Source: Amoebophrya sp. A120
Taxonomy: Eukaryota > Protista > Dinoflagellata
Assembly (NCBI GenBank): GCA_905178155.1
Contig: CAJINV010000010.1
Span: 186,001 to 250,000 of the forward strand
DNA length: 64,000 nucleotides
Reading direction: 5' to 3'
Shown here: positions 8,293-64,000 of the stretch, one piece after another
Layout: each line of letters opens with the position of its first letter
Numbering within the stretch: position 1 is the stretch's first letter
The notes under the pieces: generated by a model
What the model was told of the DNA's origin: nothing
The model's input: only the letters and a program-made list of their open reading frames with translations
Database searches by the model: none
Program-made: the position numbers and the translations under genes

Positions 8293-8358
8293 CTTCACTC
8301 AAAGATGACCAGTGTTCAAATCGCCCGCGTTTCTTGCGTTGTTGATTGTCTTCCGACA

Positions 8359-12365: not shown

Positions 12366-14378
12366 TCACGCCGTCTCCTGTCCCACCTGCACTCGCGCTT
12401 CCATCATACTTCCCACCGCCCCGTACGGCCCTTTCCGCACATACAGCTCCAACATTTCCAATCCCTGTTCATCCAGCAATTGCCGGCACACTTCCGTCTT
12501 TTCCAACAAATTCTTCACAAACAAATGCTTCTCCACCCGCCCGTCGTGCGTCGTTTCCGAGCCGAAATCCAGCAGAATCTGCCTTATTTCGTCCGACTCA
12601 ATCAGCATCCTCGCGCAGCTGAAGTCACAGGCGAGGTTCGCGAGTAACTGGTACAAAAACGGCCTTAATTCCGCATTCAAACTCTGTTTCGTCAATAACT
12701 CCAACGCCGGCCGGATCACGTGGGGGGCGATTTTCAGATTCGCTTTGGACTCTTGGTTTTTCTCCGTACTGGTCGTCGCAATGATCCAGGCGACCAACCC
12801 TGCTTTGCAGATTTCCGGATTCGTGGATTTCGCTATCGCCCCCTTCGCGAACTCCACCCAGTTTGACTCCACTACCGCGTTCTTCTGGCTATGGAAGCGT
12901 CAGGATCGAAATCATCAAAGTTGAAATAGTTTGTGATGCATAAAACCGATACCAGTCGGAAGCCCACTTATGAAGCGGCGCATGACAAATTTTCAGAGCA
13001 CCGGAGTCCAATTTGTCGTGCTGTTTGGGCACAGAAGACCGCTTTTGTCGTGCTACTCTAGTAGCGCTATTCCAAACCCTAAACAGGCTCACAATCGGCA
13101 TCACTTGCCTTCCCGGCAAGACAGGCGCTTCATGCTTTGCATTTTATGCATGGCAAATCATTTCAACTCTGTCGATTTCAAACCTGACGCTTCCATATTG
13201 GCTGTTGGGGAAGTGCACCTGAAACACCGCGCCGAACATTTTTAACAAGTATCCTGTGCAAAAGTATCGTACTCGTACTAATTGCAATCATGCATGACAA
13301 ATCTTGTTTCTTAGCGAAATCAGCATTACAAATTCCATTTTTCCTTCTGGAAAAACTTGTATTGCGATTTATACTAGTACGATACTTTTGCAATGCATAA
13401 CAAGCAGAGCTTCGCGATTTCGTTCGTGTTCGGGGCGGCGAGGAATTCTTCCACGTACTTTAGAATCAACTGCTCGTACAAATCGTTGAAATAGTTCTCC
13501 GGCTCTTGTTGTAAAATGAAGCAGCAGAAGAGCACGCACATTGGCGCGATCTTCGGGTCTAAGGAGAGTTGCATATTATCTCCCTCGGTCAGTTCTTGTT
13601 TGATCAAATTCGGCAGGTTTTCCGTTAGTAATAATTTGCGTCCGTATCTGCTCGTCCCCAACTGCTCAAATAGCTGCACCGCATTCAGCTTCAACAAGAT
13701 ATCCTCTGTGAAATACGCTTGGACTAGAAGTTGAAATGCGGACTTCGGCACTTCTACGTCCGCGGAAATCAAGTCCGCGACGAGTTGTAGATACCGGAAT
13801 TTCTTCTCGTCATCCTCCGTTTGCGCGGACACGAGGAGGGAGAAGTCCTGCGAGTTGTGTTCTTCAGTATTGACTAGCTCCACTCGTTCTTTCACCCCAG
13901 TTTCGCAGAGCAATTTCGTCAATAAATTCGCCGTCTTCAAATCCTGCTTCAACATCCAGGCGAAGTTGTCGAATTTCAACAAATCGGCAGTGATGAGGTT
14001 GCTCCTCGCTTCGACAGCGGTGTCCCCATCTAACGACAGCAGTAATTCCAAAACCGGTTGAATCAGGTTTGCCTGCTCCTCAAATTTCTCCGCGGTGGCT
14101 CTGTTTCGCCCGGACGTTGATAGTGGTTTCCACAATTTCGTGACGAAGGTTGCGAATTTGTCCCAAAGCTGGCTGTACTGGAGCAGCCGTTTGAGAACTT
14201 GTAGTCGCTGGACGTCGGACAGGTGGTCTTTATTGTTGTTTTGGTTCTGTTGCGGCGTGGTGTCGGTGAGGTAGTTGAGAATGTGGGTGTTTTGGACCAA
14301 TTCCATCGCGTTTTCGACTGTGTCCGGCGACCGGAGGAAGTCCGCCAGGGTGGACTCGCGGGGAGAGAGGGCGGACAT
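12366..14378 (-). CDS. PSMD5: 26S proteasome assembly chaperone PSMD5/S5b (Hsm3)-like, ~514 aa, 3 exons
   Basis: Exons 14378-13400, 13244-13198 and 12884-12366 are in frame. Motifs FRYLQLV, DILLKLNAVQLF and LYVRKGPY resemble PSMD5 from memory; length fits. Confidence 0.75.
12890..13197. mobile_element. Introner family B (308 bp, orientation 1)
   Basis: TIR TATGGAAGCGTCAGG..GAAATC..CA.AGTTGAAAT; DR CTGGC/TTGGC. Confidence 0.9.
13250..13399. mobile_element. Introner family A (150 bp)
   Basis: TIR core TGCAAAAGTATCGTACT; DR ACAAG. Confidence 0.9.
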
Positions 14379-15194
14379 GGTCTTTGGTGATTGGGAGTCT
14401 TTTGCTTTGTGGTCTTGTTGGGAATTCTTGGGAAAATGAAAGTGGTATACTCAGAAGAACTTCTAGATATTAACGCCAAGAAGAGCTCTTGTTGTTGATG
14501 TTCAACCCATCGTCGAATCCATGTTCGTGTGTACTGTCCTCTCGAAGTTGTTCAGTTCCATATACTTGGATTAGCTAGTGGATATGTTGGTGAACCGCCA
14601 TCGTGAAATTCATTGTATCGATCCGGTCCATCGAGAAGTAGATCAAACATCAACAAGCCAAAGCTATTTCAGTTAAAATCGGATGTGGGAGGTATACATA
14701 GCCGAGGAGCTGCTGTTTGTTGTGATTTAGTGTTGGGGGCTCGAACATAAAGCGTTAATGTTGTTGATCGCAGGTACATTTCAAACTGTCTTCAGGCACA
14801 ATTTCGGCCGTGGGGCTAGGGGTAGTGACAAAGCAAATCTTCATATTAAGTGATCATATTAAGCACGGTCGAAATACAGGGAGGAACATCACAACTATGG
14901 CAAACTGCCGCAACTTGTTTCGGAAAGAACTGCGCGAGCAAGTCACTTTTTCCAGTTACACGACACAGCAAGCAGACTGCTTGCTTTCCATCTATGGCAG
15001 CTGGCGAGCAGTCGTCGGACCAGATCATGCCCCCAACCCGCCTTCGGAGACCTACAAGTACGCTGCGCCACCAGCCACAACAAACGGCCTGGCGCGCGAG
15101 GCCGCATGCACGCTGGCACAGCCAAGAACAATAAGACACCACACGCCACACCACTAATGGCAGATGGGCAGGGCGGGAGTCAGTCTGTCACAAA

Positions 15195-16830: not shown

Positions 16831-17404
16831 CTATTGCGCCCGACTCACAAATTTCATTTCCTCCGACCCCACCGCTACGTGGTCGCAATACTGACAAATC
16901 CCGTCTACAATCCACGGCAGCACCTCCCTCTGCCCGTTTTCCGGGTAGCTGATGCAGTTGGTGTTCTTGCACGACAAAATTTCAACAAAGTTCGACGCTG
17001 CTCCTTTCTCCGAATCTTCCGGGGTGGTTGCCGTAGTCGCCGTGATTTTGCTCGAAGACGTTGAAGAAGCTGCTGGGGGACCGCAAACCTGCAGTTTCTC
17101 CCCGTCAAAACCCGTTTTCAACACTTTCCTCAGCCCCTCCTCCTGGTCAAACCATCCGCCCAGCAACCCGAGCAAAATCGTCCGCACAAAATACCCGTTC
17201 CTCGATTGCGCGTCCCACCCGTTCTATGGATTGCAAAAATGTCTGGGTCTGGAGTCTTGTGATGCAAGAAAGGGAATAGTGAACTCACTATAATGCGCTG
17301 TCAAGCATGACAAGTTTTTTTCATGGTTCTGAGTTGCGTACTCCGCATCACAAGCTGCGTTTTTGCATGACAGGGAGGAGGAGCTCTTCGCGGCCATGCA
17401 GCAC
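16831..17404 (-). other. Duplicate last exon of the ATCase gene plus truncated family C introner at the contig end
   Basis: Matches the region starting at 26616; runs into the N gap. Confidence 0.85.
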
Positions 17405-26615: not shown

Positions 26616-28844
26616 CTATTGCGCCCGACTCACAAATTTCATTTCCTCCGACCCCACCGCTACGTGGTCGCAATACTGACAAATCCCGTCTACAATCCAC
26701 GGCAGCACCTCCCTCTGCCCGTTTTCCGGGTAGCTGATGCAGTTGGTGTTCTTGCACGACAAAATTTCAACAAAGTTCGACGCTGCTCCTTTCTCCGAAT
26801 CTTCCGGGGTGGTTGCCGTAGTCGCCGTGATTTTGCTCGAAGACGTTGAAGAAGCTGCTGGGGGACCGCAAACCTGCAGTTTCTCCCCGTCAAAACCCGT
26901 TTTCAACACTTTCCTCAGCCCCTCCTCCTGGTCAAACCATCCGCCCAGCAACCCGAGCAAAATCGTCCGCACAAAATACCCGTTCCTCGATTGCGCGTCC
27001 CACCCGTTCTATGGATTGCAAAAATGTCTGGGTCTGGAGTCTTGTGATGCAAGAAAGGGAATAGTGAACTCACTATAATGCGCTGTCAAGCATGACAAGT
27101 TTTTTTCATGGTTCTGAGTTGCTAGTCCGCATGAGAAACTACGTTTTCGCATGACAAGGAGGAGGAGCTCTTCGCGGCCATACAACACAGAGTTCAGAGT
27201 CATGCCAGACTAGCATGACAAATCTCGCAATCTCCCAGACCCAGACACTTTTACATTTGATACGTTCAAACTCGTGTTGTCGATGGAAAACGGGATCACC
27301 GGGTGCCGGCTGTCTATGGAAGTGTCAGGATTGAAATCGTCAAAGTTGAAATAACTTGTAATGCATAAAATCGATACTAGTTTGAAGCCCAATTTCCAAG
27401 CCGCGCACGACAAATTTCGGCACCGTCTAAATCCAGTTTGTCATGCTGTTTAGGGACAGGGGGCGTCTTTTGTCATGCTACTTCAGCAGCTCTATCGCAG
27501 ACCCCAAACAGGCTGTCTCTCGGCCTCACTTGCCATCCCTGCAAGAGAGGCACTTCATGTCTTGCAATTTATGCATGGGAAATTGTTTCAACTTTGTCGA
27601 TTTCGATCCTGACACATCCATACTGTCTCGCGGCAACGGGTGGAAGAATTTCATCTCGTTTTTTTCGAACAGTTGCTTGAAGCAGTCGAATTTCAAGTGG
27701 TGATCCGGGTTGAACGTCACCGCTTTCCGCAATTCCTTGCTCTTCTCCTGCACCTGCTGCGACATCCGCTCGAGCTGGAGTCTCGTGAAGTACCAGATCT
27801 TCGCGACCATTTTGGGGGAAGTGAGGTACTCGTCGAGGGACTGGAATTTGTTCACGCTGAAGCCGTTTTCCTTCATTTTCTTCTCGTATTGCTCGGGCAT
27901 GGCAAGTTCCGGCGGGGCGATCAGGTCCACAGTGACGTTTGTGAAGACACGGAGTCCGTCGGCCTGTAGGTGAGCAAGTTCTGTGTAGTTTGTCATGCTG
28001 GTTCGTTGCCCGAGACAGCCGAAGAAAGTTTATCATGCACGATCGCACGTGCTACTTCTTGACATTGCATACACTAGTACCTTCGAGTGCGCTGTTCTCC
28101 CATGGTATAAGTCGCCGATCAGAGCCACGTGGATGCTCTCCGTGTTCCAATCCGCCCGTTCTAGAAAAGTGAATTCGTCTAGCAGCTCCTGCGTTGGGTG
28201 TTCGTGCTTGCCGTCTCCAGCGTTGATGAAAGACGCTCTTGGTATGTCATGGAGGGTGCAGAACCTGATAGTGAGAATGTCTTTTGATCATGCTGTAATT
28301 ACATGGAACTGAGTCGTGATTTGTCATGCAGTTTCAGAACTACGCCATCAAAGCTTTATTCAATCGACCACCAGAACATAGTTATCTTGTACCGTTCCCC
28401 AATCTCGTACTCCAGCCATTTACAAACCCCTTCCAGCTTCGATCTGATGACGAACAACGTCTGTCCCTCGCTGTACCCCACCAGCATTTTCATGCAGTCC
28501 GTTATCGTCTCCCCCTTTGCGAACGAGCTCGTCGAGCAGTCAAAATCGTTAATTTTCAAATTTTCGTGAAACCCCGCGGCGTTGCGGAAGGATTCCTTGG
28601 TTCTTGTGGAATTCTCCATGAAGATCAAATACGCGCACTTCCGGTCGTCCCGGGAGAGTTTTTGTCTCTTTTTCATCCGCAGCTGCTCCTTGGTTTCCTC
28701 CACAGAGGAGGTTGGTAGTTGTGGTTCAGTTCCGTAGTTTTCGTTAGATTTAAAGGTTTGCTTCAGGAGTTTGGCTTTCTCGTACAGGAACTTCTGCTCC
28801 GCGATCGAGAAGTCCGAGATCTTTGAAAGCGTACGACCCTGCAT
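26616..28844 (-). CDS. pyrB: Aspartate carbamoyltransferase, fused PyrBI type, ~465 aa, 5 exons
   Basis: Motifs [75 protein letters not shown]; C-terminal CKNTNC...CQYC. Exons ~28844-28381, 28237-28081, 27963-27623, 27309-27263, 27004-26616. Intron 27964-28080 is GT-AG. Confidence 0.92.
27010..27262. mobile_element. Introner family C (253 bp)
   Basis: TIR core TGTCTGGGTCTGG; DR CGTTC; splits the conserved LNG|W. Confidence 0.92.
27315..27622. mobile_element. Introner family B (308 bp, orientation 1)
   Basis: DR CTGTC; lies just after HPLPRD. Confidence 0.92.
28243..28380. mobile_element. Degenerate TAT...ATA non-canonical intron
   Basis: IR TATGTCATGG/TATGTTCTGG; DR lost; needed to join YKI to ASFINAGDG. 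Confidence 0.7.
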
Positions 28845-31491: not shown

Positions 31492-33722
31492 CTACCGCGT
31501 CGGCAAGTTAACATCCGCGCTCTTGTCCTCGTTGTTGAACATTAACCTGACTCCCCCCGGTCCCAACTCCACTCCAAACGGCGTATGAAATGCAAAAGCA
31601 TCGTACTAGTAGAAATCGCATTACAAATTTTCCCAGCATTAGAAAAAGAATTTGTAATGCGGATTTGCCTTAATCAAAAGATTTGTAATGCACGACTGCG
31701 ATTACTACGAGTACGATACTTTTGCACAGAATACGGCGGCAATCCCAGCAACTGCCGGACCGTATCCCGGATCGCCACTCCCGCCCCGTTGTACGCACTC
31801 GCCTGCATCTCCATGGACTCGACCACAAACGCGCTCGCCGTTACGCACTGGTCGTTCACGTCGTCAAACTCGCAGTGCGCCCAGAGGTTACAGTACGTGT
31901 CCACAAACTTCGTCCCATCTGGGTTTGCTTCCGGGGCGGAGTTGCAGGAGTCCAGCTTCGGTCGGCACTGGGCGGCTATCAAATGCAAAAATGTCTGGGT
32001 CAGGAAAAGTGTAGACTTGTCATGCAAATTTTCCATGACCCTTGAGGTCTGCAGTGCGGGATTCGGCATGACAGACTCTGTGAAGTCTCTGCCATGCCTA
32101 TCCTGCATGAAAAACTCCCTTCCAACTTGGTCAAAAGTGTACAGCTTTTGGCACTCATGCAACACAGATTTTTGCATGCTTCAGATTTACCATGACGAGT
32201 TGCAATCTTCCAGACCCAGACATTTTTGCAATACATAGCGGTTTCCAGATCAAACTCACACGCGTTCGGCCCGCCCTTGTAGCGGAGCGCCGCGAGGCAG
32301 GACTGCTCGGACCGGTGGAAGAACGCGAGCGTGCCGTTGTGGTGCCGTAACAAATCCCCTTCGCAAAACTGGGAATTATTCGGCATGTCCTCCCGCGGGA
32401 CCCACCCTTCAAACGCCATTTTGTCTGCCTCGTATTGGGGAACCTGCGAAGCGAGGGTAACAGTTTTGCTGTCAACGTTGGGTGAAGTGGAGGATTGAGC
32501 GGCAGTTGTGGTGGTTAGGGATCCTGAAGAAGTCGTTGTTGCTGCTCCCGTACTACTTGTTCCTGGTGCTTGCCTCGCTAATCTTCCCCTCCTCTTCTGC
32601 ATCTTCCTCATTTTGTCATTTTTCAACAGGATCAAGGACTCGTGCACCATGTCCGCGATTTCGTCGTTCCCCTCCACGCCTAATGCTCGGAGTTTCTCGT
32701 TGACAGAAGCCGCGTTATCCTCTTCTTCTATGTCGAAATCCACCTTTGCTTTTCGTTGGAGATTTTTCAAAAACTCGCTCCTCGTCTGCTCCCTCCTCTC
32801 CAACTGGATGAGTTGCTGTTGATGAAGTTCTATCCTATGCAAAAGTATCGCACTCGTAGTAGTCTCAGTCATGCATTACAAGTCGGTATTCCAAGCTAAA
32901 CCAGCACGACAAATTTCGCTTGTCATACTTAATGCGATTTTTACATACTAGTACGATGCTTTTCTTGCAATGCACAAGTTCCTGGGGCAGTGGGAGAAAC
33001 GTTCTCTCCTTGTGTGCCTGCTTCATATCAAATGCAAAAATGTCTGGGTCTGGAAGAATACAAACTTGTGATGCGCTTGCGCATTTCAGCACACAGAAAA
33101 ATAAAAATCTCTGATGCATAGGTAGCAAAAGCTGCCCACTTGCACTTTCTGTCACCAAAGTGGGGGATTTGTCATGCGGATTCGGCATTGCGGAAGCTTT
33201 TCGAAACCTGTGATGCTAGAGCTTCCATGCCAGACCTTCTGTGTAATGCAAAAACAGCATGACTCTTCCAGACCCAGACATTTTTAAGTACATTTGATAC
33301 TTCTCCTTCTGCAGTAAAATCATCCCCTCCGGACCTGTGTGTTTTTGATCCACGGTGTAGTCGAAGGTCGGGTGGAGGTTGAGAAGCTCGGATTCTTCGG
33401 GAAAAGAGACGGCGATGGAGGACTGTTGGGCCGCTTTATTGTGGGAGAAAATATGCCGGAACTTTTTGGTCAGAGAAGTAGGCAACCCCTGCTTGTGAAA
33501 CAGTGGTCCTTCCGAAACCGCTCGGATGACGGCTTTGCCGGAGACGAGGGTGGAGGGGGAGGGGGAAGTGGTCCAGAAGAGGTTTAATACGCCGAGGAAG
33601 AGTGGCATTCCTAGTACTGCTGTGCCACCACAGGTTCCAAGAGGCATATCGCCAGCTGCTGATACTGCTAACGCGCCGGCATGTGGCCTCGGAAGGCGGC
33701 CACGCCGTCCCCGGCGCTTCAT
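31492..33722 (-). CDS. Hypothetical secreted or membrane-anchored protein, ~459 aa, 5 exons (coiled coil, S/T linker, Cys-rich C-terminus)
   Basis: Removing four introners (+5 nt each) gives one ORF: EK|QAH, EL|HQQ, TA|QCR, PP|FGV. Hydrophobic stretch near the N-terminus. Confidence 0.75.
31584..31733. mobile_element. Introner family A (150 bp, reversed relative to 13250)
   Basis: DR CGGCG; the CTAGTA arm is on the left here and on the right at 13250 and 40389. Confidence 0.9.
31977..32237. mobile_element. Introner family C (261 bp)
   Basis: DR GCGGC/GCGGT. Confidence 0.9.
32831..32976. mobile_element. Introner family A (146 bp)
   Basis: DR AGTTC; right end ACA. Confidence 0.85.
33026..33299. 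mobile_element. Introner family C (274 bp)
   Basis: DR CTTCA/CTTCT. Confidence 0.88.
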
Positions 33723-39000: not shown

Positions 39001-41517
39001 TTTCGGGCCTGCCATGGAAGGGGCGCGGGCGCGGAGCGTTTTTCCTTTCTGGGCACGCCAGGGAGGGGCTTGGGGAACAGGCGTCGAGCGACCCGGGAAA
39101 AACCGCTCTGGGCGGCCCCAAAAGAAGGCGAACCCCCAAGACGCAGCTACGCCTGTGACAACGGGCAGGGGTTGGCGGGGGCGCGAGTCTGATCAACGCA
39201 CGCTGCCACCGCCAAAGCTTGCTCGCACCCAGCTCGTTAGCCGGAGCAGGCCAGAAAGAGCCACCCGGGCCGCAGAGCTCCGTCCGGAGGTCCGGCCCCG
39301 CGGAGGAACCGGCCCGCCGAGGGCTTTTTGTCAGCTGCCTTGCTACCCGGGCACGCATACCAAAATAAAAATCGCACAGGCCGGCGCACAGGCCAACGGC
39401 GCCGACGCTTCACAGAGGGTCGCCGTGTGTGCGCGGGGCTCTGCAGCGCCTGCGTGGACGCACAAATAAATTTCCGCGGCCGGCCGAGCCGGCGCTGGCA
39501 ACACAGGCCTCGCCCTTCTTTCAAGAGAAACATGGCCACTGCGCTCCGGCTTGTTGAGGCCCGCTAGCGATGCAACGCCCAACGGTTCCAGGCATTTTAG
39601 AAACGCCCGCCCGTACTTGGGCTGCCGGACTGCGCCCTTCCGGGGCGGAAGGGCGCCAACGCTGCGAGCCGGGCTAACCTTTATCCGCGTGTCTGGGGGC
39701 AAGACGCGCAACGCCTGCCTCACCACGAAAAAGCGGCGGCCTGTCAGCTACTGAGAGTGCGCCACTGGTGGCCGCGCGATGATACAAAAACCCACAAACA
39801 GAACGCCACCGTCGCGATTCGTCGCCCTTTTTTGCTATGTTTTTCGCTCATGATCGCAACATTTTTTCGATCATGATCGAAGTCGCGATGGTACCGCAGC
39901 GGTATTGTGTCCGTCCATAGCCCGCGCTCGCGGACTTCATACCCGACTTGTTGACTGAGCCCGACCCGTCCTTGGTGTAGTCGATGTTAACAGAAGGCTT
40001 CACGCCCTCCGAAGCCGTGCTCTTCGCGCCGCCGGTGCCGCCGTCCCCCGCTCCGGGGGATGCCTGCTCGTCGCCACCGGCCCCGTCGGCTGCCTCGCCG
40101 CTCTCCCCGGTGCCCCCGTCCTTGTCGGAGGTGGCGGCGGCAGGGGTGGTTTCCGTCGTGGTCACCTTGGACGCCTTCGAGGGCTTTGCGGTGGTGCGCT
40201 TCGTCCCGCGCAGCATCTCCTGGCCGCCGGGGAGCACGAAAAACCAGACGACAACGAACCCGATAAGGAGCAGCACCACTGCGGAAACCACTAACACGAT
40301 GATGGCGATGCAGGTGATATTGGAGGTCTTCGGAGCCGCTGTGGTGGTGGTCGTTTCCTCGGTGTTCTCATCTTCTTCGTCACCGAACTATCCTGTGCAA
40401 AAGTATCGCACTCGTACTGATTGCGCATATGCATGACAAATGTTTTTCCTGAGGAAAAGCAGCATTACAAATTCCACCTTCCTTCTTGCCAAAATTTGTG
40501 ATGCAATTTATACTAGTACGATGCTTGTTTTGCATTGCATACGAACATGTACTGTGCCATTTCCGATGCCTTTTCTGACGAGTAATCCACTCCCGCCTGC
40601 GCCACTGCTTTCGCCTTGTCCCACAGACTCTGTCCCTCGCCCTCTGCTTCCTGCGTCTGACTCGACGCCATGATTTTTGCGCCCGCCTCTTCCTTGGCGG
40701 CCTGGCTCGCTCCTCCCATGGCTGCGTGTTCACTAGAGAAAATGACATGGGAGTGCTCCTGCAGCGTATGTGTCGCCGTGGCGGAACTGTGGACTTTGAT
40801 TTTTGCACCCAGCTGAAGGGTGGAGGAAGGATCGGCGTTCTTTTTCGCAGAAGTCGTCTTCATCTCGGTGGAAGAAGTTTTTGTTTTACGATTGTCAACA
40901 TCTACAAATCCAGCGTTACTATCGTTGTTCGTCATTCCCTCTTCTGCTACTGCTACTGTTCGCCCTGCTTCATTCTTTCGTGGTTCCTGCCCAGGACTTC
41001 TGTCCCGCTGCAGGCGCTCGACGTCCGGAGATGATGAGACCCCGGGACTTCTAAGTTTGCTTGTGTCGTCCCTCCCAGTCGCGGTTGAGTCAAGTTCTTG
41101 CTCTTCGGGTTGTCCGTCGTAATTATTTTCAACATCATCTGCCTCATCCTCGTTCGGAGACAGCGGTTCTTCTGCATCTTCAGGAACTTCTTCCTGAAGA
41201 TCTTCCCGTTCTCCGGGCGGTATTTGATCCGGGTCCTCGCCAGGAGCATCTACTTCGCTTTTTCTCCCAGTGGCTGATGAAGCTCCATCCGCATTTGCAC
41301 TTCCTGCTCCTGCTGGTGGTTTCAAAATTTTTCTGTCGATTCGTTTTCGCTTCTGGATGACTTGAAAACCGAGCACCTCACCGAGGAGCTGGAGTTGATG
41401 TCGGGAGTTTGTCATGCTACTTCTGCCACAAGGATTTTCGTAGAAATTGTACAGCAGAAGCAGGAAGTAGGAAGATGTCATCCACCTGCGCAAGAGAAAT
41501 TTCGCGGGTCGCGACAT
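36032..41517 (-). CDS. Single-pass membrane protein with low-complexity ectodomain and Lys-rich tail, ~769 aa, 7 exons
   Basis: In frame after removing six introns including the 2-kb element. TM segment ITCIAIIVLVVSAVVLLLIGFVVVWFFVL. Last exon tentative; alternative stop at 36300. Confidence 0.72.
36096..36313. mobile_element. Degenerate TAT...ATA intron (tentative)
   Basis: IR TATC...AAAAAACCG; no DR, but the +5 rule gives an in-frame K-rich exon. Confidence 0.5.
36580..36799. mobile_element. Degenerate introner (220 bp)
   Basis: IR TATGGATGGAAAA/TATTGAAGGGAAAA; DR CCGGG/CCGCT. Confidence 0.7.
36910..37144. mobile_element. Introner family E (235 bp)
   Basis: 21-bp TIR T(G/A)TGACAGTGCACAACTCCCC; DR CCGGT. 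Confidence 0.9.
37238..37527. mobile_element. Introner family D (290 bp)
   Basis: TIR TAT(C/T)CTGAG.AAAA; DR GTCGC/GTCGT; similar to 63120-63398. Confidence 0.85.
37893..39919. mobile_element. 2027-bp TIR element with 8-bp TSD inside a coding sequence
   Basis: ~58-bp TIRs TATGGA(T/C)GGACAC...GCGGTACCATCGCGA.TTCGATCATGATCG; TSD GCCCGCGC (37885-37892, 39920-39927). Removal joins SASAG|MPSS in frame. GC-rich interior with no recognisable transposase. Confidence 0.9.
40389..40541. mobile_element. Introner family A (153 bp)
   Basis: DR CGAAC. Confidence 0.9.
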
Positions 41518-42835: not shown

Positions 42836-45800
42836 TCACACTCCACTTGATCCCTTCTTGCTCATGATACCTCCCGCTGCGAAATTTTCCAACGGGCGCA
42901 CGGTCTCGATGTTTTGACGCCGGTCGTGTAATGATCTTTGCGGACCACGATATGAACAGTGAACTTATCCCTAGTACACGTTCGCGCACAGCAATAGCTC
43001 GTGTTCTTGCATGAGAATTCCGCCATGGACCGGTTTTTTTTAACATGACAAGCACAACAAGTGTCGGCCCCCGCTTGCAATCTGTCATGCATTTGTTCGT
43101 ACGTGGTGTACGGGAAATAATTAATTTGTAGTGCATAGATGCCGCGACGCCATCAGGAGGTTATTCTCTTCCTCGTCATCCCCGGCTTCCTCCTCAAAGC
43201 TGGTATCCGTAGATTCCCCCTCCCCTGTATGGAAGCGTCAGGATGGAAATCGTCAAAGTTGAAATAACTTGTAATGCATAAAATACTAGACGCAAAGTAC
43301 CTGTCTTGCAGAGCAGGCAACTGAGGCCGATTATAAGCGTGTTTCGGGTGTGAGATAGGGCTGCTAAAATAGCATGGAAAAAGCAGTCTTCTCTGCTCAA
43401 ACAGCATGACAAATTGCATTTCCATGCTGCCAAAATTTGTCATGCGCCACTTGCAAACTGGGCTCCAGGTCCAGCTGGTATCGCTTTTTTGCATTACAGA
43501 TTATTTCAACTTTGACGGTTTCAATCCTGACGCTTCCAAACCCTGCTGGCGCTGGTGCAGCTCCAGCTCCTTTCTTCTTACTTGCTGTTCCTTTCTTCTT
43601 GTGACTGCTAGTAGCCCCAGTTTTTTTCTTCTCACCTGTAGTTTTCTTTTTCAACTTCTTTTCTCCGGAGGTTGCTGCGTCCTTTTTTTTCTTCTTCTTT
43701 TTCGCCGCTTCGCCATCCGAGTGTTTGTTCGTTTGATCTGACTGCTCTTTCTCAGTGCTAGTAGGCGAGGACACGTTAGAAGTACCCCCGGAGGTGTCAT
43801 GCGATACGTCGCTGACGTCCGTTGCGTGACTGAGATCCGACTTGATTTTCGTGGACTTGCCCTTTTTGCTGCTCGCCTCCGTGTTGACGGAGCTGAGAGC
43901 AGACGCAGCGCTGCCGGCCGGTATTGAACTTGCGCCGGTTGCGTCCGTTTTCTGAGAGGAGGTTATGTGTGCTGTGTCGGCGGAAATAATTACCTCGCCT
44001 TGTTCTTCGCCCGGTTGGGTAGCACCGCTGTCTCCTGCGTGGCCGTCCCCCTCGTGACCGTGGCCGTCCTGGCTCTGCAACTTCTCCGCGCCCATTATGA
44101 AGTTCTCAAATGTTACATTCTCAAATGTTACAGCACGAATTTGAGATGCAAGAATGGCAGAAATGAAACTGAAAGGGGGAAGACGAAGATTTTTGCACCT
44201 CTTGCATTACAGGTTTGGCACAGAATATTCTAGTTGTAAAAATGCTATCTAGCGCGTCGAGAACTTGTCATGCGCAGCAGCTTGATCATGTAGATACTGC
44301 TCCTGGTGGCAATTTTGCATGGCAAATCCATGCAACAGTTGAGAATATAATGCTTGAGAGTTGTCCCATACCCTTCTTCTTGTAGGCGTGCACGTCCACC
44401 GCCCCATGCGAACTACCGTGGTCGAAGTCGTGAGAGCCAACGTGTAGTGCGCAAAAGCATCTTCCCATAGTGGCCGTATAATTGCAATCTTGCATGACAA
44501 AAATGCAATCTTGCATGACAAAATAAATTATGGCCTTCTAGTCGTACCTGATTCAGTGGCATATTTCCCAAGACAAACTCAAGAAACTTCACGTTTCCTT
44601 CGGAAAAGATTGAGACTGATGCAGTGCATAATTTCGACTCGCACTAATTCGAAGGACTTTTGCTGCACCAGTGCATACCAAATCCACTTTCACCGCTTTG
44701 TCGACTTCGCCGCCCTGGCTCGTCCGGATCTCGGACTTCTTCATTGATTTCTTCTCCGCAGCCGAGCCGCGTGCCGCCGTTCCCGAAGCGTTTATCTTTG
44801 AGGCTTTTGACGTAGGTTCTTTCTTCTCCTCGTCCTTTTCTCCTCCTGCACAAGTTAGACAATAAATGATCAAGGCAATCAACACTATCAACAGAACCGC
44901 TCCGCCACAGATGATATAAAACAGCATCGATGGAACCCCCGCGATCGTTCCTTCGTCCGCTTCACTTGTGGTGTTTTTGCCGTCGTCGAGCAGAGTTTCG
45001 CCGCTTTGACCTTGCCCAGTGATATTCCCTGGGATCGTTGTAGTTGGGGTGTCGTCGTTGCCAATGATGTGCTTGTCCTGCTCCGTAACCCAAACGCATT
45101 CGTACTCGTAGAGGGTTGCGTCCGTGATCAAATCTGCGTACGGAAACGCCTGTGCCTGCGCGCACAACTCCTCCGCATTTTCGTCGTTCTTTTTACAACA
45201 CGCAGCGACTTTCCCGTCATTCGCCGCAGTTCCCCCGTGCTTCGTACCACAATGGTCTTCGCACAAACCCTGTTTGTCACCACAGGCTCCCTTACAGCTC
45301 GGTTCTTGCACCCAAGCCGGGATCGCGACGCAGGAGTGGTAGGGCTCGAAGGTGGTCGGGGATGAGGTGATTTCGGTTTTGTATTTCTTCGACAAAAAAT
45401 TATCCGCTGGCAGGTTGCTGATTTTGTTCAGCACCAAGCACTCGCGCCGGGGGCCGGAAAACCCGAATTCCGGTGTAATAGTTACAGTACCACTACTGTC
45501 GGCGCTGTTAGTAACTTCGTACTTGCAGCAACCGCCGATGTAATTATTGTCCGCGGGTTGTTCGGTAATCAAGCAATGATCGTTGCAGAACCTGGGCACG
45601 GAATCCGGATCCGTCTCCCAGCCGCCACTCGCTCCCTCGAAGCAGGGCGTCTCGCATTCCTGTGTGCGATTGTGAACACTGCAGTCGGGGCAGGAAATCA
45701 AAATGTTCTCCGTTCCGCCGGTTTCGTCTTCCTGCAGCGTTGTGGTCGTCGTTTCAGACGTAACGTACACACACTCGTGCTTCCAAAACGCCGGATCCGA

Positions 45801-48800
45801 GATATCCTCCGCGCGCAACCCGACCGCCCGGCTGCAGACGCTGGTGCTAGTAGTAGCATTTCCATCGTCCTCCGAAGTTGCCCCTGTGGTCGTGTAGTTT
45901 TCGCCTTTCTTGCAACAGCCAATGTCCGCCGGAATGCCTTCTGGGTCGAGCACCTTTCCGCTACTCTCGTCCCAGGTGTACCCCGGCTTTTGCAATATAG
46001 CCTCCGTTGCGGGCGGATTGCAATACTCGTTGCAGACGCCGGTCGTGGAGTTGCCGCAACTTTCCGTTCCGCTGCAGTTCGCCTCCATGTAGTCCTCGAG
46101 CCACACCGGCATGATGACGCACGATTTGTAGTAGTCATTCGCAGTGATGGATCCGTTTAGCGTTTTCCTCCCGATCTCCTTCAGAAACGACCCCACCAAA
46201 TAGTCCGTCCTCTTCTCCCACACAGTCAGGAAGTTGAGAACTTCGCACTCTTGTGGTCCGGAAAACTGCCCCAGCGGGTCTACGGTGGTGAAATTGCTCC
46301 ACATGCAGCATCCCCCCATGTAGTTCTCATCCGCCGGCTTGCACTTCTCCGGACAGAACGCCGTCGTGTCTGCGTTCGGACACTCCATTCCGTATGGAAG
46401 CGGAGGGACTGAAATCGTCAAAGTTGAAATAGTTTCAGTCTGTGATGCATAAAATGAAATCCACAAAATGCCTGTCTTGCAGAGTAGGCAAGGGAGGCAG
46501 ATTGTAAGCCTGTTGAGGGGTAGAAGTAGAGCTGCTAAAGTAGCATGACAGAGGCGTCTTCCTTACCCGAACAGCATTACAAACTGGATTTCGGCTCTAC
46601 CCGAATTTGTCATGCGCAACTTGAAACCTTGGGGCCAACTGATATCCGTTTTATGCATCACATATTATTTCAACTTTGTCGATTTCGATGCTGACACCCA
46701 CGTATTCCGCATTCCATGGGACGCACTTGGACGGCGTCCGCAGCCACGGAGATGCCGCGGAGATCGGGGGTGATGGCATTGGTGCCGGTTTTGAGCGTTT
46801 CCGTGTTCACAAACCCATAGTGGTCGCTGACTCGTCGCGCAATCACCCCGGTAATCACCCCGCTCTCCACCTTCTCACACACCTCCGGCGTGATGCCCGC
46901 CACCGCGGCTCCCTCTGCCTTCAGACAGGCCGCTTTCGCCGCTCTCGTTGCGCACACGTTGGAGTAGAACAAGCCGTTGCCGTTGTCGACCTCGTCGATA
47001 GACCCCTTTTTGTTGTTCGCGGCCTTCGGCCAGCAGTGGTAGGGCAGGGGTACTTCTGGGTTGACGTGCCTCATGCTGTAATGTTGCGAGCCATAGCTGT
47101 ACATCACACAATCGTCGCCGAGGAAGTCGCAGATCATTTTGCACACCCAACCGAATTCCACTTTTAAATTTTCTGGCGCTTCGTCGGACTCGTCCGAGGC
47201 AACGTCCTGCTGCAACTTCGGAAGTGGCAAAGCGGCCGCTCTTGTGTAGAACTGTTTCAGAAAGTCTATCCTGTCTTCCGCCAGCGAACCGTCTTCCAAC
47301 GGACCGCGCAAATTCACATTTATCCAGTCAACGGCGGCTTTGCACTTCTGCCCTGCGGCTGACACCTCTGCTTCATTCATGGTCCCGTCTACCCCCATCA
47401 CATTCACGTTATAATTTTCAGCAGCAATTTATGCAACGTAAATTTCCTGCACATGTACAAAATGCATGACAAATTTCGCTAACTTGCAGTGTCGAACTTG
47501 TCATGCTACACTAGGATCGAAGGCAAGTTTTGTCATGCAGAGACTGCACTTGTACGTGTACAGGAAATTTACTGTGGATACAATTCCTGCCATTTCGGTT
47601 GCGTTTTCCACAATACCCGGACTCAAGTTGATCTCGCATAAATCCCCAAAAGCGTAGTCGGCTTTGTCCTTCCCCATCCAGTCCTGACAGTCGCCCACTC
47701 GCCAATCGTACGTCGTTTCCGTCACGCGGGTTTTGCAGATTCCGGAATAGTGGTGCAAAACAGGCTGTTCTTTCGCCGTGTGCGTCCACTTGTTCTGCAG
47801 ACTGAAAACGTCCGTGCCCAAACCAGCCTGCGAAGTCGGGTTTTCAATCTTCGGAATACACAGAAACTCCGAGTGGTTTTGGTTTTGTTCGGGGGCTGAA
47901 CCTCCAGAAGAACCTCCTTGCTCTTCTTCTCCCGAAGGAACCGCTGCTGCTGCTGCTGTGTAGGTGAAGGCGACGCACGCGGGTGTCAAATCGCAGATCA
48001 TCTTGCACATCCAGAGGAAATTTTCATTGTTGATCCTGTTCGTCTGTTCCTCCACATCTAGCACGTGTGTCACGTATTTTCTAAGGTACCCATCTTGCTC
48101 CTCTGTTAGCTTGTCGTCAGTAGTGACAGAAGCGAAGCCGTGCGTCGTTATTTTTCCTTGTATCGCCAGCAACTTGCCCCGGATCTCGTTTGCAGCTTCG
48201 TAGGCCTCGACACAGATCTGCGCCATCGCGCTCGCGTCTCCATTGCTGTTGAAGCCCGCACTGGCGTAATCGGCTTCCGGAATCTTCACGGAGGTGGCGT
48301 TCACATCTTCCGAAGATGTTTCCTTGTTCAAATCAATGCGGCAGAGAGCGGAGAGTTGGAAATTCGTATTGTCGTGAATTTCCCAGGAGGAGGGGGGGCA
48401 AAGATCAGCTTCGTTGGTGATGATGCCAGGAGCGGTTGTGGTTCTTCGTGATCGTGCTGTTGCACTCGTAAAATAAAGTCTTGATTGAATTTTGGAAGCT
48501 GTTGTAGCCGCTGTTCCTGCGCGTTTTTTGCCACGTTCAGCTACTTTTGACCTCGCGCCACTGCTCTCTTCTGTAGCAATTTTCAACATCCCCATCCGTT
48601 GGTTTCTTCTCTCATCTACTTCGATGTTGAGAAAAGAGGACGAAGATTCTGACTCGTCCTCTTGTTCACCAGAGATATTCACTGCTGGTGCCCCAGAAGT
48701 TGACGCACGTAGTTCCATTGTGACATTCACCCTCTCACCGCTGCCGGTCATCTTCGCAGATGTTGACCCAACATCTACCACGACAAGCTGGTCTTCGACG

Positions 48801-49447
48801 TCGTCCGACTCCTTATTGGCTTTTGGAGCTTCTACTTCAACAGCATGATCCACGTTTCTACTTGTAGTTTCATCTTCATGGACCACCGGCCACTCTCGAC
48901 CTGTGGAAGCATCTACCTCCTTATCCTTCCTAGCATCGGTTGTTCCACCGACCGCCTTCGCCTTCCTGTTTTTTCTTCGGTCTTGTCCAAGTTGTATCTT
49001 CCTGGCATTTGATGACAATTTTTCGCGCTGTTCGCTTGTCCTGCGCAGTTCGCGGTGCTCGTGCCGGTTCTTCACGCTGAACTTGAAGGCGGCAACGAAA
49101 ATATTACTAGTAGCTGTGCTACCTGGTGTCGTGTGCTGGTTGAAGATGTTGTTCTTCTCGTGGTCAGGGGATGATTCACCACAACGCAGGTCTGCTCCCG
49201 TAGTCGTGTCATCTTCTTGTGAAACCCGACAGATAGACCTGAAAAGGCCACCGTAGTTGTTCTCTCGCTCGTCGTTCTTGTACAATAGCTGGTGCCACAA
49301 GACCGCCAAGCACAGCAGTTTCAATCGTAAAAGCGTCGCCGCAACAACAAATCCACGACCCCGAGCGTTCTGTACGACGCCAGGGGCGGGTGCGGGAGCG
49401 CGGGCAAGGGCCAGCTGCTGGTTGTAGGAAGGTGGACGTGTCATCAT
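42836..49447 (-). CDS. Large type I membrane adhesin-like protein, ~1700 aa, 7 exons; two PAN/apple-like domains and two Cys-rich repeats
   Basis: CKMICDLTPACVAFTY and CKMICDFLGDDCVMYSY; duplicated NY(M/I)GGCC..FSGP..EC.VLN..CCKK..ECV.V units; TM LFYIICGGAVLLIVLIALIIYCL. In frame across six introns; last exon tentative. Confidence 0.78.
42951..43137. mobile_element. Degenerate TAT...ATA intron (tentative)
   Basis: Weak IR, CATGACAA motifs inside, frame preserved. Confidence 0.45.
43228..43540. mobile_element. Introner family B (313 bp, orientation 2)
   Basis: DR CCCTG; interior is the reverse complement of that at 12890. Confidence 0.9.
44096..44370. mobile_element. Degenerate introner (275 bp)
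   Basis: IR TATG...TCTCAA; DR CCCAT/CCCTT; joins KKKG|AEKL. Confidence 0.75.
44443..44677. mobile_element. Degenerate introner (~235 bp)
   Basis: IR GCAAAAG..CTTC; boundary uncertain and chosen because 240-nt removal is needed for frame. Confidence 0.55.
46393..46704. mobile_element. Introner family B (312 bp, orientation 2)
   Basis: DR TTCCG. Confidence 0.9.
47430..47580. mobile_element. Introner family F (151 bp)
   Basis: TIR core GTAAATTTCCTG.ACA.GTACAA; DR CAATT. Confidence 0.88.
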
Positions 49448-58767: not shown

Positions 58768-61700
58768 TCACTTGTTCGAAGCGGTCGATTTCGGTGATTT
58801 CGATTTCATTTTCGACGAGAGTTTCACTTTTTTGTGTTTCGCATTGGACCTCTTGGCATCGTTCGGTTGAAAAGTGTTGTCTGAAAACTGTCCTTCTAGC
58901 GCCTTATACGCGGCATTCTTCCCCTATCCACAGTAAATTCAATATCCCCGCACACGACGTTGCTGCGCAAATGCAGATTCTGCATGACAGAACTTGCTTT
59001 CAATCTTATTCAGCAGGACAGGTGGCACACTGCTCCAAGGTGGCGAAATCATATTGTAGTCATGCATCTTGTACAACATGTGCGTCGTGTACAGGAACAA
59101 TAAATTTGCATTGCATATCCCGGAGGGTCGGAACTTGGCTAACTTTACCGAAGCTGCGATCGTTTATGCATTGCAAATGTGTCAGTCTGGGTCTGGACAC
59201 TTGTGATGCTAAAGTATCGATGAGTCTGGCGCTTTCAAGTGCAGCCAAGCATGACAAGTTTCTTTCACGCCGTCTGATGCGTATCACGCATGACAAACTG
59301 CGTCTTTGCATATACAAAAAGAAACGCCTTTGCTGGCTACGCAGCACAGATTTTTCAGGAATGCTAGAGATGCAACACAAGTTCCACATATTTTCCAGAC
59401 CCAGGCACATTTGCACTTGATATCGTTTCTCCGTGCAAGACTTCGGACTCGTCCCCACTGGTGTCGCTTTTCCTTCCGCTTTTGCGCTTTCCACCGCTGT
59501 GCTTCAGACTTGCCACTTGCCCTATGAAAGCCTCAGGTTGGAAATCCTCAAAGTGAAAATAATTTGTAATGCAAAAAAACGACTCCAGTTGGAGCACCAT
59601 TTATAGTCGGCGCATGACAAATTTCCCGGGCACTCAAAACGTGTCTGTCATGCTAGTTAGGCAAAGGGGTGCCCTCCTCTCATGCTAATCAGGAGCCCAA
59701 TTCTGAACCCGTAGAAGCACAATAGTCGGCCTCCATTGCGTTCTCTGCAATACAGTCTTTTTGGTGTCGCATTTCATGCATCACAAATTACTTCCACTTT
59801 GAGGATTTCCATTCTGAGGGTGTCATATGCCTGCCGTCAAAGTGACTGCTGTGCCCGCCCCCGAGTTTGCTCGCCCGGGCGCTGGACTGCTCTTGGTTCA
59901 AAGCACTGCCGCGCTGCAGGGCCGAGTATCAAATGCAAATATGTCTGGGTCCGGAAGGATGCAAGATTTGTCACGCAGGTTCTCGATGACCCATGAGGTC
60001 TGGAATGCAGCACCAAGCATGACAGATTCTGTTAGATCGCTATCATGCCTGTCCTGCATGAGAAATTCCCTCTCAACTTACTAAAAAAGGACGGCTGTTG
60101 GTAATCATGCAACGCAGATTTTTTGCATGATTCAGATTTAGCATGACAAGTTGCCATCTTCCAGACCCAGACATATTTGCATTTGATACCGAGGAAGAGT
60201 ACCCCAAATTGCTCACCCGGATCGAGGAGCCTTGGGGGCTCAGTGCGCTTTGTCGCATGACGCTACCGCGGGCGGTGGTCATTCTGGAGCGGCGTTGGAC
60301 CTCCTCGTTCCCCAGCACGGCGTCCAGCTGCAAGGTGAATCCCGCGGGCTTACTGTGCCGCCACAACCCCAGCATGTATCAAATGTAAAAATGTCTGGGT
60401 CTGGAAGAATGCAAGATTTGTCATGCATATTTCTCATGACCCATAATGCCTGTAATGCTTGAACTAGCATCGCAGACTTTTCGAGGGCTTCCTGATGCAC
60501 CTTCCGCATGAGAAATGGCCTGTCTGTGTAGCAAAAACTGTACCCATTTTGCTGGTCATGCAATACAATTTTTTTTAGAGTCCAAAAACAGCATGACAAA
60601 TTGCAATCTTCCAGACCCAGACATTTTTACATTTGATAGCATGAAGTCCCGCACCATACCCACGGTCGCGTTGCTATGGGAGTGTCAGGATTGAAATCAT
60701 CAAAGTTGACATAGTTTCTCATGCACAAAATGCAAGGCATGAAGTGCCTGTCTTGCCGGGATGGCAAGTGAGACAGATTGCGAGCCTATTTAGGGTTTGA
60801 AATAGAGCTGCTTAGAGAGCATGACAAAAGCAGTCTTCTGTGCCCAAACAGCATGACAAATTGGATTCCGGTGCTCCGAAAATTTGTCATGCGACGCTTG
60901 GAAATTGGGCTTCCAACTGGTATCCATTTTATGCGTGACAAATTAAAACTATTTCAACTTTGACGATTTCAATCCTGACGCTTCCATAGTTGCCCTTCCC
61001 GAGCTTCAGCTTCTTGTACACATTCAAATTATACAGATCCGGTTCGGGCACCAGGTATGCATTGCAAATATGTCTGGGAGGTCTCCTTGGCAAAGTGCCA
61101 AGTTAAAATTTTTCTAATGCATATTTTCCATGACCCATGACGTCAGTGATGCATGCTCTAGCACCACAGATTCTGCGAAAGCTTTCTGATGCTCATACCG
61201 CATGAGAAATTATGCCCTCTTTGCTTGGCAAAAACAGGACCGCTTTTGGTGTGCATGCAATACAGATTTTATGTAGGGTCCAAAGGTAGCATCACAAGTT
61301 GCATCCTCCCTGACCCACCAGACATATTTGCAGTTTATACCAGGTCCCGTTTGTCGATGTGTTTGGAGGAGACCGCGGTGGCGAGCCTCGTCAGTATCAA
61401 CTGTAAAAATGTCTGGGCCTGGAAGATTCTGACACTTGTCATGCACGTTTTGCATGAGCCATGAATTCTGTGATGCATACCCTAGCAATACATATTTTTT
61501 GAGGGCTTCCTGATGCGTATTCCGCATGACAAATGCCTTCTCAGCGCAGCAAAAATTGCATTTCCTTTGGTACTCATGCAATACAGATTTTTTTGGAATC
61601 CAAATGCAGCATCACAAGTTCCAATTCTTCCAGACCCAGACACTTTTGCAATCCATAGTTAGATACGGATCCTTAAACCCGCTCCCCTTCAACACCTCTA

Positions 61701-64000
61701 GTGCCTGTACGTCCGCGATCTTGAAAAATATGGGAGAGAGTGTCAGGATCGAAATCGTCAAAGTTGAGAAGATAACTTGTAATGCATAAAATGCATGACG
61801 CGAAGTGCGTGTGTTGCAGAGCAGGCAAGTGAGGCTGATTGTAAGCCTGTTTGGGGTTAGAGCTCGGGCTGCTAAAGTAGCATGAGAACATCGGTCTTCT
61901 TTGCATAAACAGCATGACAAACTGGATTTAGGCACCACCAACATTTGTCATGCGCCACTTGCAAACTGGGTTTCAACTGGCATCCAATTTATGCATGACA
62001 AATCATTTCAACTTTTACTTTACCGATTTCGAAGATCCTGACACATCCATAAAAAATTCCTTCGCGTTAATGGTCTCCGGGATTGCCACGTGTTCCACCT
62101 TGGGAGGCAGCGGTGGTGGCGGTGGTATCAAAATGCAAAAGTGTCTGGGTCAGGAAGATTCTGAGACCTGTCTTCATGCATACTTTGCATGACACAGGAT
62201 GTCTGTAGCGCACGACCCAGCATCACAAACTTTTAGAGGTCTTCCTGATGCCTACTCCGCATGACAAACGCCCTCCCCGCGTAGCACAAACTAGACACCT
62301 CTTGCTGGTCATGCAATGCAATTTTCTTTAGAGTCCAAAGCTAGCATCACAAGTTCCAACCTTCCAGACCCAGACATTTTTGCATTTGATAGGTGGTTCG
62401 TCTTGCTCGGAGGAAGGGGGTATCCTGTGCAAAACAAGTATCGCGCTCGTAGTAATCGCAGTTATGCATTACAAATCTTAATCTAGTTGGTTAGGTAAAT
62501 CCGCATTACAAATTTAATTTGTAATGCTGAGGCAATTTGTATTGCGAGTTGTACTAGTGCGATGCTTTTGCAGTGCATAGGGGGTGAAAGCATAGGTGGC
62601 GGCGGGGGCACATCCACATCGGGTATGGAGGCTTTTGCAGGCGGGAGGTCCGGCTCCGACGGCGTTGAGGGGGGAGCGCTACTTGGGGGCTTGAACTTAT
62701 GGGAGTGTCAGGATTGAAATCGACAAAGTTGAAATAAGAATAACTTGTAATGCATAAAATGCAGCCCACAAAGAAAGTGCCTGTCTTGCAGAGTAGGCAG
62801 GTGAGGCAGATTGCAAGCCTGTTGAGGGGCAGAAACTGAGCTGCTAAAGTAACATGACAAGAGGCGGCTTCCTGACCCAAACAGCATGACAGACTGGATT
62901 TCGGTTCTACCCAAATTTGTCATGCGCCACTTGCAAACTGGGTCACAACTTTCATCCATTTTATGCATCGCAAGCTATTTCAACTTTGTCGATTTCAATC
63001 CTGACACATCCATAGGACTTCACCTTCTCTTTTTTCGGCTTCTCTTCCTTTGCGACCGAGGGTATTTTCGGCTGCTCCTTGTACTCGCCGTCCGACGAAG
63101 TTGGATCCTTGGCGGGTTCTATCCTGAGTAAAAACGTCCCCACACCAGAGTCAGGATGGGGATTTTGCAACACAAACCTAGGAGCTTTGGGAATCACGCA
63201 TGACAAGTTGCGCTCCGCATTGTAGGGCAGGTTAGCAAGTGCAGCCGCATCACAGATTCATCTGCTCATCCTGTTTACAGCATCACAAATTCCAAAACAC
63301 GATTAGAAATGGCACTCATGGGGATGCTCATTACAAGTCTTCGTGTCTTTGCAAATCTGCATCACAACTCTGGGGTGGGGACGTTTTTACTCAGGATAGG
63401 TTCTTCCGCTTTTTCATCCTCCTCGTCGCTCTTGCAACAGCAGCAGAGCAACAGGAGCAACAACAGCAGCAGCACCAAGGCCAACAAAGGCCAGAGCCAG
63501 CAGCGGCATCGTACAAAAAAAGTGCTTCACTGTGATGATTTTGCAAGATCTGCGTCACAAGATTGTTACAGCACATGACACAGAAAATTTGCCACGCGCG
63601 CTTCCCAAGTGAAAACACGCTTAAAAATCCTATGTCTTGCATGTGTAGCAAGACAAACAGTGTTGCGTTCCACTTCCTGCATCGCAAGTTCACGTATGAA
63701 ACACTTTTTTCTTGCGATAAGGGAAAGCACTCCTCCAGGTCAAATCCGCCTTCGTCCGGAGAGACGGTTAGGAGGTCGCTCGATCCATTCGCGTATGCAT
63801 TGCAAATATCATGTCTGGGTCCGGAATAAAACGTGAACTTGTGATGCGGGTTGTGGTCTTACGTTAAATGAATCTGTGTTGGTGTTGCATGACCAACAAA
63901 CGCGCAGCGTTCTTTTTCCCCATGCAAAAACGCCGTTTTTCATGCGGACCACGCACTATGCGACAGAGGTGCAAGAACTTGTCATGCTTGGCTGCATCGT
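58768..64000 (-). CDS. 3' part of a single-pass membrane protein gene split by 15 introners; 5' end outside the window
   Basis: About 417 codons recovered as one stop-free ORF: TM CWLWPLLALVLLLLLLLLLCCCCK, Pro-rich segment, ending KSTASNK*. Exons are about 24-183 nt. Confidence 0.85.
58925..59117. mobile_element. Introner family F-like (193 bp)
   Basis: TATCCACAGTAAATT end shared with the 47430 element; DR TCCCC/TCCCG. Confidence 0.75.
59165..59422. mobile_element. Introner family C (258 bp)
   Basis: DR TCGTT. Confidence 0.88.
59523..59827. mobile_element. Introner family B-like (305 bp, orientation 1)
   Basis: TIR core GGAAATCCTCAAAGTG; DR TGCCC/TGCCT. Confidence 0.85.
59927..60188. mobile_element. 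Introner family C (262 bp)
   Basis: DR CCGAG. Confidence 0.9.
60377..60638. mobile_element. Introner family C (262 bp)
   Basis: Long perfect TIR TATCAAATGTAAAAATGTCTGGGTCTGGAAGA; DR GCATG. Confidence 0.92.
60675..60988. mobile_element. Introner family B (314 bp, orientation 2)
   Basis: DR GTTGC. Confidence 0.9.
61056..61339. mobile_element. Introner family C (284 bp)
   Basis: DR CCAGG. Confidence 0.88.
61395..61657. mobile_element. Introner family C (263 bp)
   Basis: DR GTCAG/GTTAG. Confidence 0.88.
61729..62051. mobile_element. Introner family B (323 bp, orientation 2)
   Basis: DR AAAAA. Confidence 0.88.
62126..62391. mobile_element. Introner family C (266 bp)
   Basis: DR GGTGG. Confidence 0.9.
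62421..62579. mobile_element. Introner family A (159 bp)
   Basis: DR GGGGG. Confidence 0.88.
62698..63014. mobile_element. Introner family B (317 bp, orientation 2)
   Basis: DR GAACT/GGACT. Confidence 0.9.
63120..63398. mobile_element. Introner family D (279 bp)
   Basis: TIR TATCCTGAGTAAAAACGTCCCCAC.CCAGAGT; DR GGTTC. Confidence 0.92.
63507..63719. mobile_element. Degenerate introner (213 bp)
   Basis: IR ATCG.A.AAAAAAGTG.TTCA; DR AGCGG/AGGGA. Confidence 0.75.
63794..64000. mobile_element. Introner family C-like, truncated by the window edge
   Basis: TATGCATTGCAAATATCATGTCTGGGTCCGG. Confidence 0.75.

Follow-up and report, generated by a model that had tools for sequence, protein, structure and literature searches.

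Precise removal of introners from Amoebophrya transcripts in both orientations, without GT-AG ends

Introners of the dinoflagellate Amoebophrya sp. A120 are removed precisely from transcripts in both orientations, and this happens without GT-AG ends. We examined a window of 64,000 nucleotides (contig CAJINV010000010.1, positions 186,001 to 250,000 of the forward strand) and a set of loci from a related assembly, in which both orientations are about equally common. The original prediction held that one rule, loss of the element plus five bases, applies whichever way an element lies. We agree. Exactly this length is removed at 16 of the 16 elements bridged by RNA, and families B and F are each represented both ways. 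A scan for TAT...ATA with a flanking duplication returns 33 rows for the window, against 0 for three shuffles, and the window catalogue holds 32 distinct elements. Family letters A and B are those of the original prediction, while C, C2, D and F were assigned in the present analysis.

Removal from transcripts and orientation

The RNA junctions come from contigs of four runs, X1-X4, of one sample. These were classed as RNA by inference, backed by their near-absence from intergenic DNA. Between 58601 and 64000 every complete catalogued element, 14 in all, has a joint of its own, which gives 14 joints. Within a single gene, X1-X3 skip family B elements in one orientation (59523..59827, plus strand, 310 nt skipped) and in the opposite one (minus strand: 60675..60988, 319 nt; 61729..62051, 328 nt in three of the four runs; 62698..63014, 322 nt), all at a depth of one contig. 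X1 also skips a reversed family B element at 46393..46704 (minus strand, 317 nt) and the family F element at 47430..47580 (plus strand, 156 nt). Family F is removed the other way too, at 58925..59117 (minus strand, reversed relative to 47430, 198 nt). Once spliced, the minus frame of the gene at 58768..63791 is open over 417 codons. The elements at 54936, 55561 and 56405 have no bridging contig among the X1-X4 pieces for the stretch.

The same rule fits the aspartate carbamoyltransferase gene (ATCase, PyrBI-like; 26616..28844, minus strand). When its two GT-AG introns (28265-28392 and 27964-28080) and its two introners, each with five more bases, are left out, the protein is identical at 470 of 470 positions to the annotated Amoebophrya sp. 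A120 protein P0001. One of these introners belongs to family B in reference orientation (27315..27622, plus strand). The other belongs to family C2 (27010..27262), a relative of which is spliced at 59165-59422. The A25 ortholog is colinear across both junctions.

One can imagine a scenario where the elements never reach the transcript. A transposase would excise them from DNA, as with the internal eliminated sequences of ciliates, and only genes already freed of them would be transcribed. The exact loss of an element with one duplication copy fits this scenario, and the RNA status of X1-X4 is only a guess. Run X5 argues otherwise. It behaves as DNA: coverage is about 42-50x across genes, elements and intergenic stretches alike, and there are long unspliced contigs, one of which (56424-59214) contains element 58925 whole. 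Among the joints listed, no empty site occurs in the X5 DNA contigs, which pass unspliced through the elements, although rare excision events could escape. X1, in turn, has almost no intergenic cover. The DNA contigs keep the elements, and therefore a DNA-acting transposase is contradicted, as is the original suggestion of a transposase-type substrate. We find DNA excision hardly credible.

A separate observation concerns run X9, which like X10 consists of raw RNA reads; neither run covers an exon of the stretch. At 59714-59827, X9 has 254 reads that belong to a different family B copy and carry an adaptor-like loose end at 59714, and reads pass ATA into foreign sequence. A retained intron or a break might explain these ends, as might a reverse-transcriptase stop at a branch or repeated copies of a single molecule.

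The orientations in the window were examined with blastn. Family B copy 12890 has full-length plus matches at 27315, 59523 and 22675 and minus matches at 43228, 46393, 60675, 61729 and 62698. This reference copy (12890..13197, plus strand) is duplicated at 22675-22982; its 5-bp duplication differs at position 5, synonymously, and the frame is open without the element plus five. On the host strand the reversed copy at 43228..43540 (minus strand) starts with TTT, and 46393 starts with TAC. Clustering on interiors alone, with the terminal repeats removed, leaves the family B orientations unchanged (0 of 61 edges inconsistent). Family A copy 13250 (13250..13399, plus strand, reference orientation, duplicated at 23035-23184) has plus matches at 40389..40541, at 32831..32976, whose host-strand 5' end is TGT, and at 62421..62579, which is spliced with 164 nt skipped. 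Its minus matches are at 31584..31733 and 9858..10007; the latter is duplicated at 19643-19792 and was absent from the earlier list. The codon model was applied to 31584 and 40389 as well. The split of family B into 12890, 27315 and 59523 versus the five reversed copies, and the reversal of 31584 relative to 13250 and 40389, were both proposed originally and both are confirmed.

Orientation relative to the host gene was counted in the related assembly. A pattern scan matched 135 of about 400 stretches, and the 80 listed rows are all from assembly JACKZZ01. The 134 loci analysed span 405,886 bases, and their elements are 75-92% identical to those of the window. From 411 candidates, 393 match at 3 or more of the 5 duplication positions, 268 of those have a confident host strand, and 258 are unique. 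Host-strand calls within loci agree in 238 cases and disagree in 3. It must be noted that family C is over-represented in this sample, whose source is a relative and may be another strain than A120. Same versus opposite orientation stands at 42:34, 18:17, 13:13 and 13:10 in the four largest clusters (pooled 86:74, p=0.38), at 18:14 in family A and at 2:2 in family B; the small families have 2:2, 4:1, 4:1, 4:1 and 4:0. Orientation clusters took in 207 of 290 elements. The 258 strand-assigned elements show no orientation bias per family.

The element architecture is regular. The 5-bp duplication is perfect in 294 of the 411 candidates and matches at 4 of 5 positions in another 81. TAT is found at 278 of 288 host-strand 5' ends (loci and window together), and A occupies terminal-repeat positions 11 and 12 in 223 and 238 of 258 elements. 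Two side observations concern codons in the set of 288. Phases counted at TAT are strongly biased (83/138/67, p=5e-7); the top class would be phase 0 if the cut lies 1 nt before TAT, and the bias may reflect target-site preference. Of 84 duplication mismatches, 48 sit at third codon positions, which equals or exceeds the expectation for one freely drifting intronic copy; both copies may be constrained.

The cut register and the machinery

Mismatches between duplication copies limit junction sliding, and the register was read from the range common to the 16 RNA junctions. The cut precedes the host-strand TAT by 0-1 nt and follows ATA by 5-4 nt. The wider population lends this weak support: first- and second-codon-position mismatches are rarer at duplication position 5 (3/205) than at positions 1-4 (33/726; p=0.04, post hoc). 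Codon scoring does not separate registers 0 and 1, and the control positions 1-4 are likewise signal-free. The donor dinucleotide is TA at register 0 and NT at register 1. GT-AG occurs in no register, either at the 16 RNA junctions or in the 258 elements, and no first or last intron base is preferred in those 258. A scan that ignored terminal bases gave mostly false positives, and its terminal counts were discarded. Two candidates failed. A 3' cut one base after ATA, with ATA|G read as AG, is refuted by the RNA junctions, and a suspected G|TATGC donor at about 28071 lies 8 nt inside an ordinary GT-AG intron.

The two ends of an introner look much the same from either strand. End composition is alike on both strands in the 258 elements, and the duplications resemble flanking exon sequence. 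Strong end-to-end stems are predicted in both orientations (hairpin z -8.8 at 59523 and -10.4 at 62698). Terminal duplex energy has no strand bias, and whole-element folding energy has a weak one (160/288, p=0.04). No short word has a convincing strand asymmetry; the best is p=0.003 among 1234 k-mer tests. On the host strand, all 288 elements keep the first T, and 5 have a changed last A (Fisher p=0.02, post hoc). The 5' variants are mostly TAC, TAG and TAA, which resemble GTAC, GTAG and GTAA. Counts bearing on a possible conversion of duplications to inverted repeats are 9 versus 3 at position 1 and even at the other positions.

We consider it somewhat probable that introners are removed by the U2 spliceosome with a relaxed GT-AG rule. 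The elements are best seen as non-autonomous DNA transposons with TAT...ATA inverted ends and a 5-bp target duplication, seated in exons in either orientation, and the RNA loses the element plus one duplication copy. Either orientation would put N-U-A-U at the 5' intron end of the transcript, along with a long end-to-end stem. N|UAU could serve as the donor. At the 3' end, a distance measured from the stem or from an A in the final ATA would define the site, with AG playing no part. Orientation would be irrelevant because both ends are the same sequence.

The original prediction argued from the two orientations that these are more like a transposase or tRNA-type endonuclease substrate than U2 introns. 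Its appeal to the symmetric terminal repeats is supported, as no conserved signal is seen outside them, but the further step is not supported. Ends that are alike on both strands give orientation neutrality to any machinery that reads them, so by itself neutrality is no argument against the spliceosome. The introners of Polarella, with GT/GC/GA donors, work both ways. As for canonical splice signals on each strand, both strands carry the same donor-like N|TAT but no AG.

Several observations speak for U2, among them the strict loss of the element plus five, the even orientation counts and the constant first T. If the register is 1, N|TAT matches the ordinary GTA(T/C/G) donor at +2 to +4. Of 128 predicted ordinary introns, 29 introner-like ones were dropped and 99 are left, some of them surely false. 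A is found at +3 in 54 of these 99 versus 271 of 1060 in the background (p=7e-9), and GTAT is the top donor 4-mer (21 of 99), with no +5 G. In Table S4 of Farhat et al. (PMC7789003) the top A120 non-canonical donor classes are all NT, and in A25, whose repeats start with TTA, the only such class is TT. By Table S6 of the same paper, the U2 spliceosome is nearly complete. In Fritillaria, splicing of all intron classes is reported to require the U2 spliceosome (PMC13326754).

Several points count against a relaxed U2 spliceosome and against the register on which the donor match depends. A single sample, in the form of contigs, supplies all the RNA evidence for removal. For the register, the upper bound of 1 comes from 62698 alone, where a mismatch puts the cut 0-1 nt before TAT; 61395 and 63507 give 2. 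AG is the acceptor at 0 of the 16 RNA junctions at register 0 or 1, and across the larger set it stands at the 3' end of 19 of 258 elements at register 1 and 29 of 258 at register 0, against 7.4% in the flanks (uncorrected p=0.024). There is no enrichment of G at +1, with 85 of 258 on the host strand and 76 on the antisense strand, or among weak-stem elements (38 versus 38 of 116, a set with false positives), and weak stems show no sign of having gained GT-AG. The branch-point motif was sought on both strands and no strand-specific one emerged: the yUnAy-type motif occurs in the last 60 nt of 168 sense and 179 antisense of 288 elements. Ordinary introns, too, show no enrichment of the motif towards their 3' end and no branch-point consensus. 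The Table S4 donor classes may reflect aligner choices at slidable junctions, and U1 snRNA was not found in A120. Finally, the 3'-overhang geometry of the cut also resembles that of the Euglena non-conventional introns.

That resemblance points to another possible, if doubtful, explanation, a structure-guided pathway like that of Euglena, which is the most viable version of the original idea. A nuclease-ligase or an unconventional spliceosome would read the paired TAT/ATA ends and cut at fixed distances. The indifference of the first and last intron bases and the strong stems in both orientations suit this pathway, as does the missing U1. The Euglena rule N3-CDG...CH'G-N5-6|R has the same overhang direction (PMC12501133), and Euglena introns are reported to exit as circles. 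However, the match of N|TAT, and of TTA in A25, to the GTA donor would be a coincidence. Selection on RNA pairing is unsupported, with G-U not in excess over A-C mismatches in host-strand stems (299 versus 268, p=0.21), and the exon-start purine of Euglena is not seen (153 or 129 of 258). We favour the relaxed U2 spliceosome over this pathway because N|TAT matches the ordinary GTA(T) donor.

The original prediction also raised a tRNA-type endonuclease, which would cut a bulge-helix-bulge at the junction and leave a ligase to join the exons. The motif is a 4-bp helix between two 3-nt bulges, with offsets summing to 7. Its staggered cut leaves a 3' overhang in the same direction as here. The remaining evidence contradicts it. 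The 4-bp exon-intron helix beyond a 3-nt bulge is possible in 11 of 258 elements, with an equal number antisense, pairing between the two duplication copies does not exceed chance, and the offsets sum to 5. Rfam has 0 hits in the window. Four-base helices at a 1-nt bulge are possible in 30 of 258 elements (27 antisense); palindromic duplications account for these helices, which were therefore left out of the signal. We judge this mechanism very unlikely.

Other introners and host genes of the window

The gene at 58768..63791 (minus strand) carries 14 introners; its function is not assigned, and its 5' end lies beyond the bridged part. Five of its introners belong to family C (59927-60188, 60377-60638, 61056-61339, 61395-61657 and 62126-62391, plus strand), each spliced as element plus five. 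Family C also occurs reversed at 33026..33299 (minus strand), relative to 31977-32237 and to these five, according to blastn, the codon model and clustering. A family D introner at 63120..63398 is spliced and has a relative at 37238-37527. The introner at 63507..63719, with a host-strand 3' end of ATG, is spliced with 218 nt skipped and a cut at most 2 nt before TAT. The gene that hosts 46393 and 47430 (44678..49445, minus strand) has 1431 stop-free codons once spliced.

All host genes were originally placed on the minus strand. This stands for the cellular host genes. The minus-strand Pfam matches in the window are OTCace_N and PPR, and the codon model, which was seeded with five minus-strand window genes and then retrained with outside loci, calls the host strand minus for 30 of 32 elements (55561 and 62698 fall below its confidence margin). 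It does not extend to a Copia-like remnant, which lies on the plus strand at about 4.8-7.9 kb (Pfam rve_3 and RVT_2 at 4809-7902). Just upstream of these integrase and reverse-transcriptase matches is a 680-bp element (3730-4408) whose inverted ends read TAC...GTA and whose 5-bp duplication is perfect, an introner-like architecture at greater length.

A near-identical 9.7-kb tandem duplication (7720-17404 and 17505-27189) spans a 100-N gap. All 52 mismatches between its copies lie at 17338-17404, adjoining the gap, and the duplication is probably an assembly artefact. Introners 12890 and 13250 lie inside it (copies at 22675 and 23035) and were counted once.

Some further observations concern single elements or genes. 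The introners at 54936-55222 and 55561-55843 have common flanks and decayed duplications (2/5 at 54936), and were apparently duplicated along with their exon. At 36097-36313 and 4041-4111 there are TAT...ATA hairpins flanked by inverted, not direct, repeats. The short word GCATGACAAAT and its reverse are repeated on both strands inside families A-D, within most elements. These may be transposase-binding repeats, and the TGAC in the word could offer a branch A in either orientation. A minus-strand pentatricopeptide-repeat gene (53009-54739, Pfam PPR_2, 11 stretches) has almost no coverage in run X1.

Known systems and implications

The element class is already described. Farhat et al. (2021, PMC7789003) published A120 introner elements with TAT-starting inverted repeats and an A run, direct repeats of 3-5 nt, and non-canonical junctions. 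Ours are alike in organism, repeats, removal from transcripts and repeated families. In that paper the splice position is called variable, with no clear signature, whereas we see a strict element plus five at register 0-1. Figures such as Fig. 3 and S19-S25 aside, its text has the word "orientation" 4 times in the main part and 3 times in the supplement, always of genes, and does not state a 50:50 orientation, the element-plus-five rule or the register. We found no paper that states orientation neutrality or a register for Amoebophrya introners, in a search that left subscription journals mostly outside. Inverted-repeat elements with Copia/Gypsy homology are also reported in A120 (PMC12130899).

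Two-way intron creation has precedent. According to a preprint (10.1101/2020.10.14.339549), introner classes 2, 3, 6, 7, 8 and 10 of Polarella glacialis and the introners of Aureococcus create introns either way, and these too are transposon-derived and have target duplications. They use GT/GC/GA donors with splice sites recruited from the element or the duplication, and Polarella classes 6, 8 and 10 are biased in orientation. The introners studied here recruit no dinucleotide and have no bias.

Two other systems come close. As described in PMC12501133 and PMC11282704, euglenid non-conventional introns share a MITE-like origin, paired ends, slidable repeats, a 3' overhang and the lack of GT-AG, and they are reported to give circular intron products. 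Their signals are CDG/CH'G with spacers of 3 and 5-6 nt and an exonic purine, in contrast to TAT/ATA, 0-1 and 4-5 nt and no purine rule. Fritillaria borealis (PMC13326754, PMC11282704) likewise has transposon-derived non-GT-AG introns beside an ordinary minority. There AG-AC and AG-AT are the preferred ends, U1 is conserved, and the introns have been shown to depend on U2, whereas here the terminal bases are free and U1 is not found.

How Amoebophrya splices its 65% of non-canonical introns has been a question since 2021. What was variable and without signature becomes a testable rule: the element plus five is lost, with a cut 0-1 nt before TAT, in either orientation and with free terminal bases. 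The rule predicts the map positions of lariat branches or circle junctions and helps to re-annotate slidable junctions. A rule that needs nothing but paired TAT/ATA ends and a ruler, both terminal bases being free, may point either to a spliceosome that has lost all terminal recognition or to a second, independently evolved non-spliceosomal mRNA splicing pathway outside the euglenozoans; we hold this tentatively. If it is true, paired ends and a ruler govern the removal of tens of thousands of introns in A120, and insertions of this transposon class are near-neutral either way. With symmetric ends and no GT or AG to recruit, almost every exon site could take an insertion in either direction, and we offer this tolerance as a reason for the scale of the invasion.

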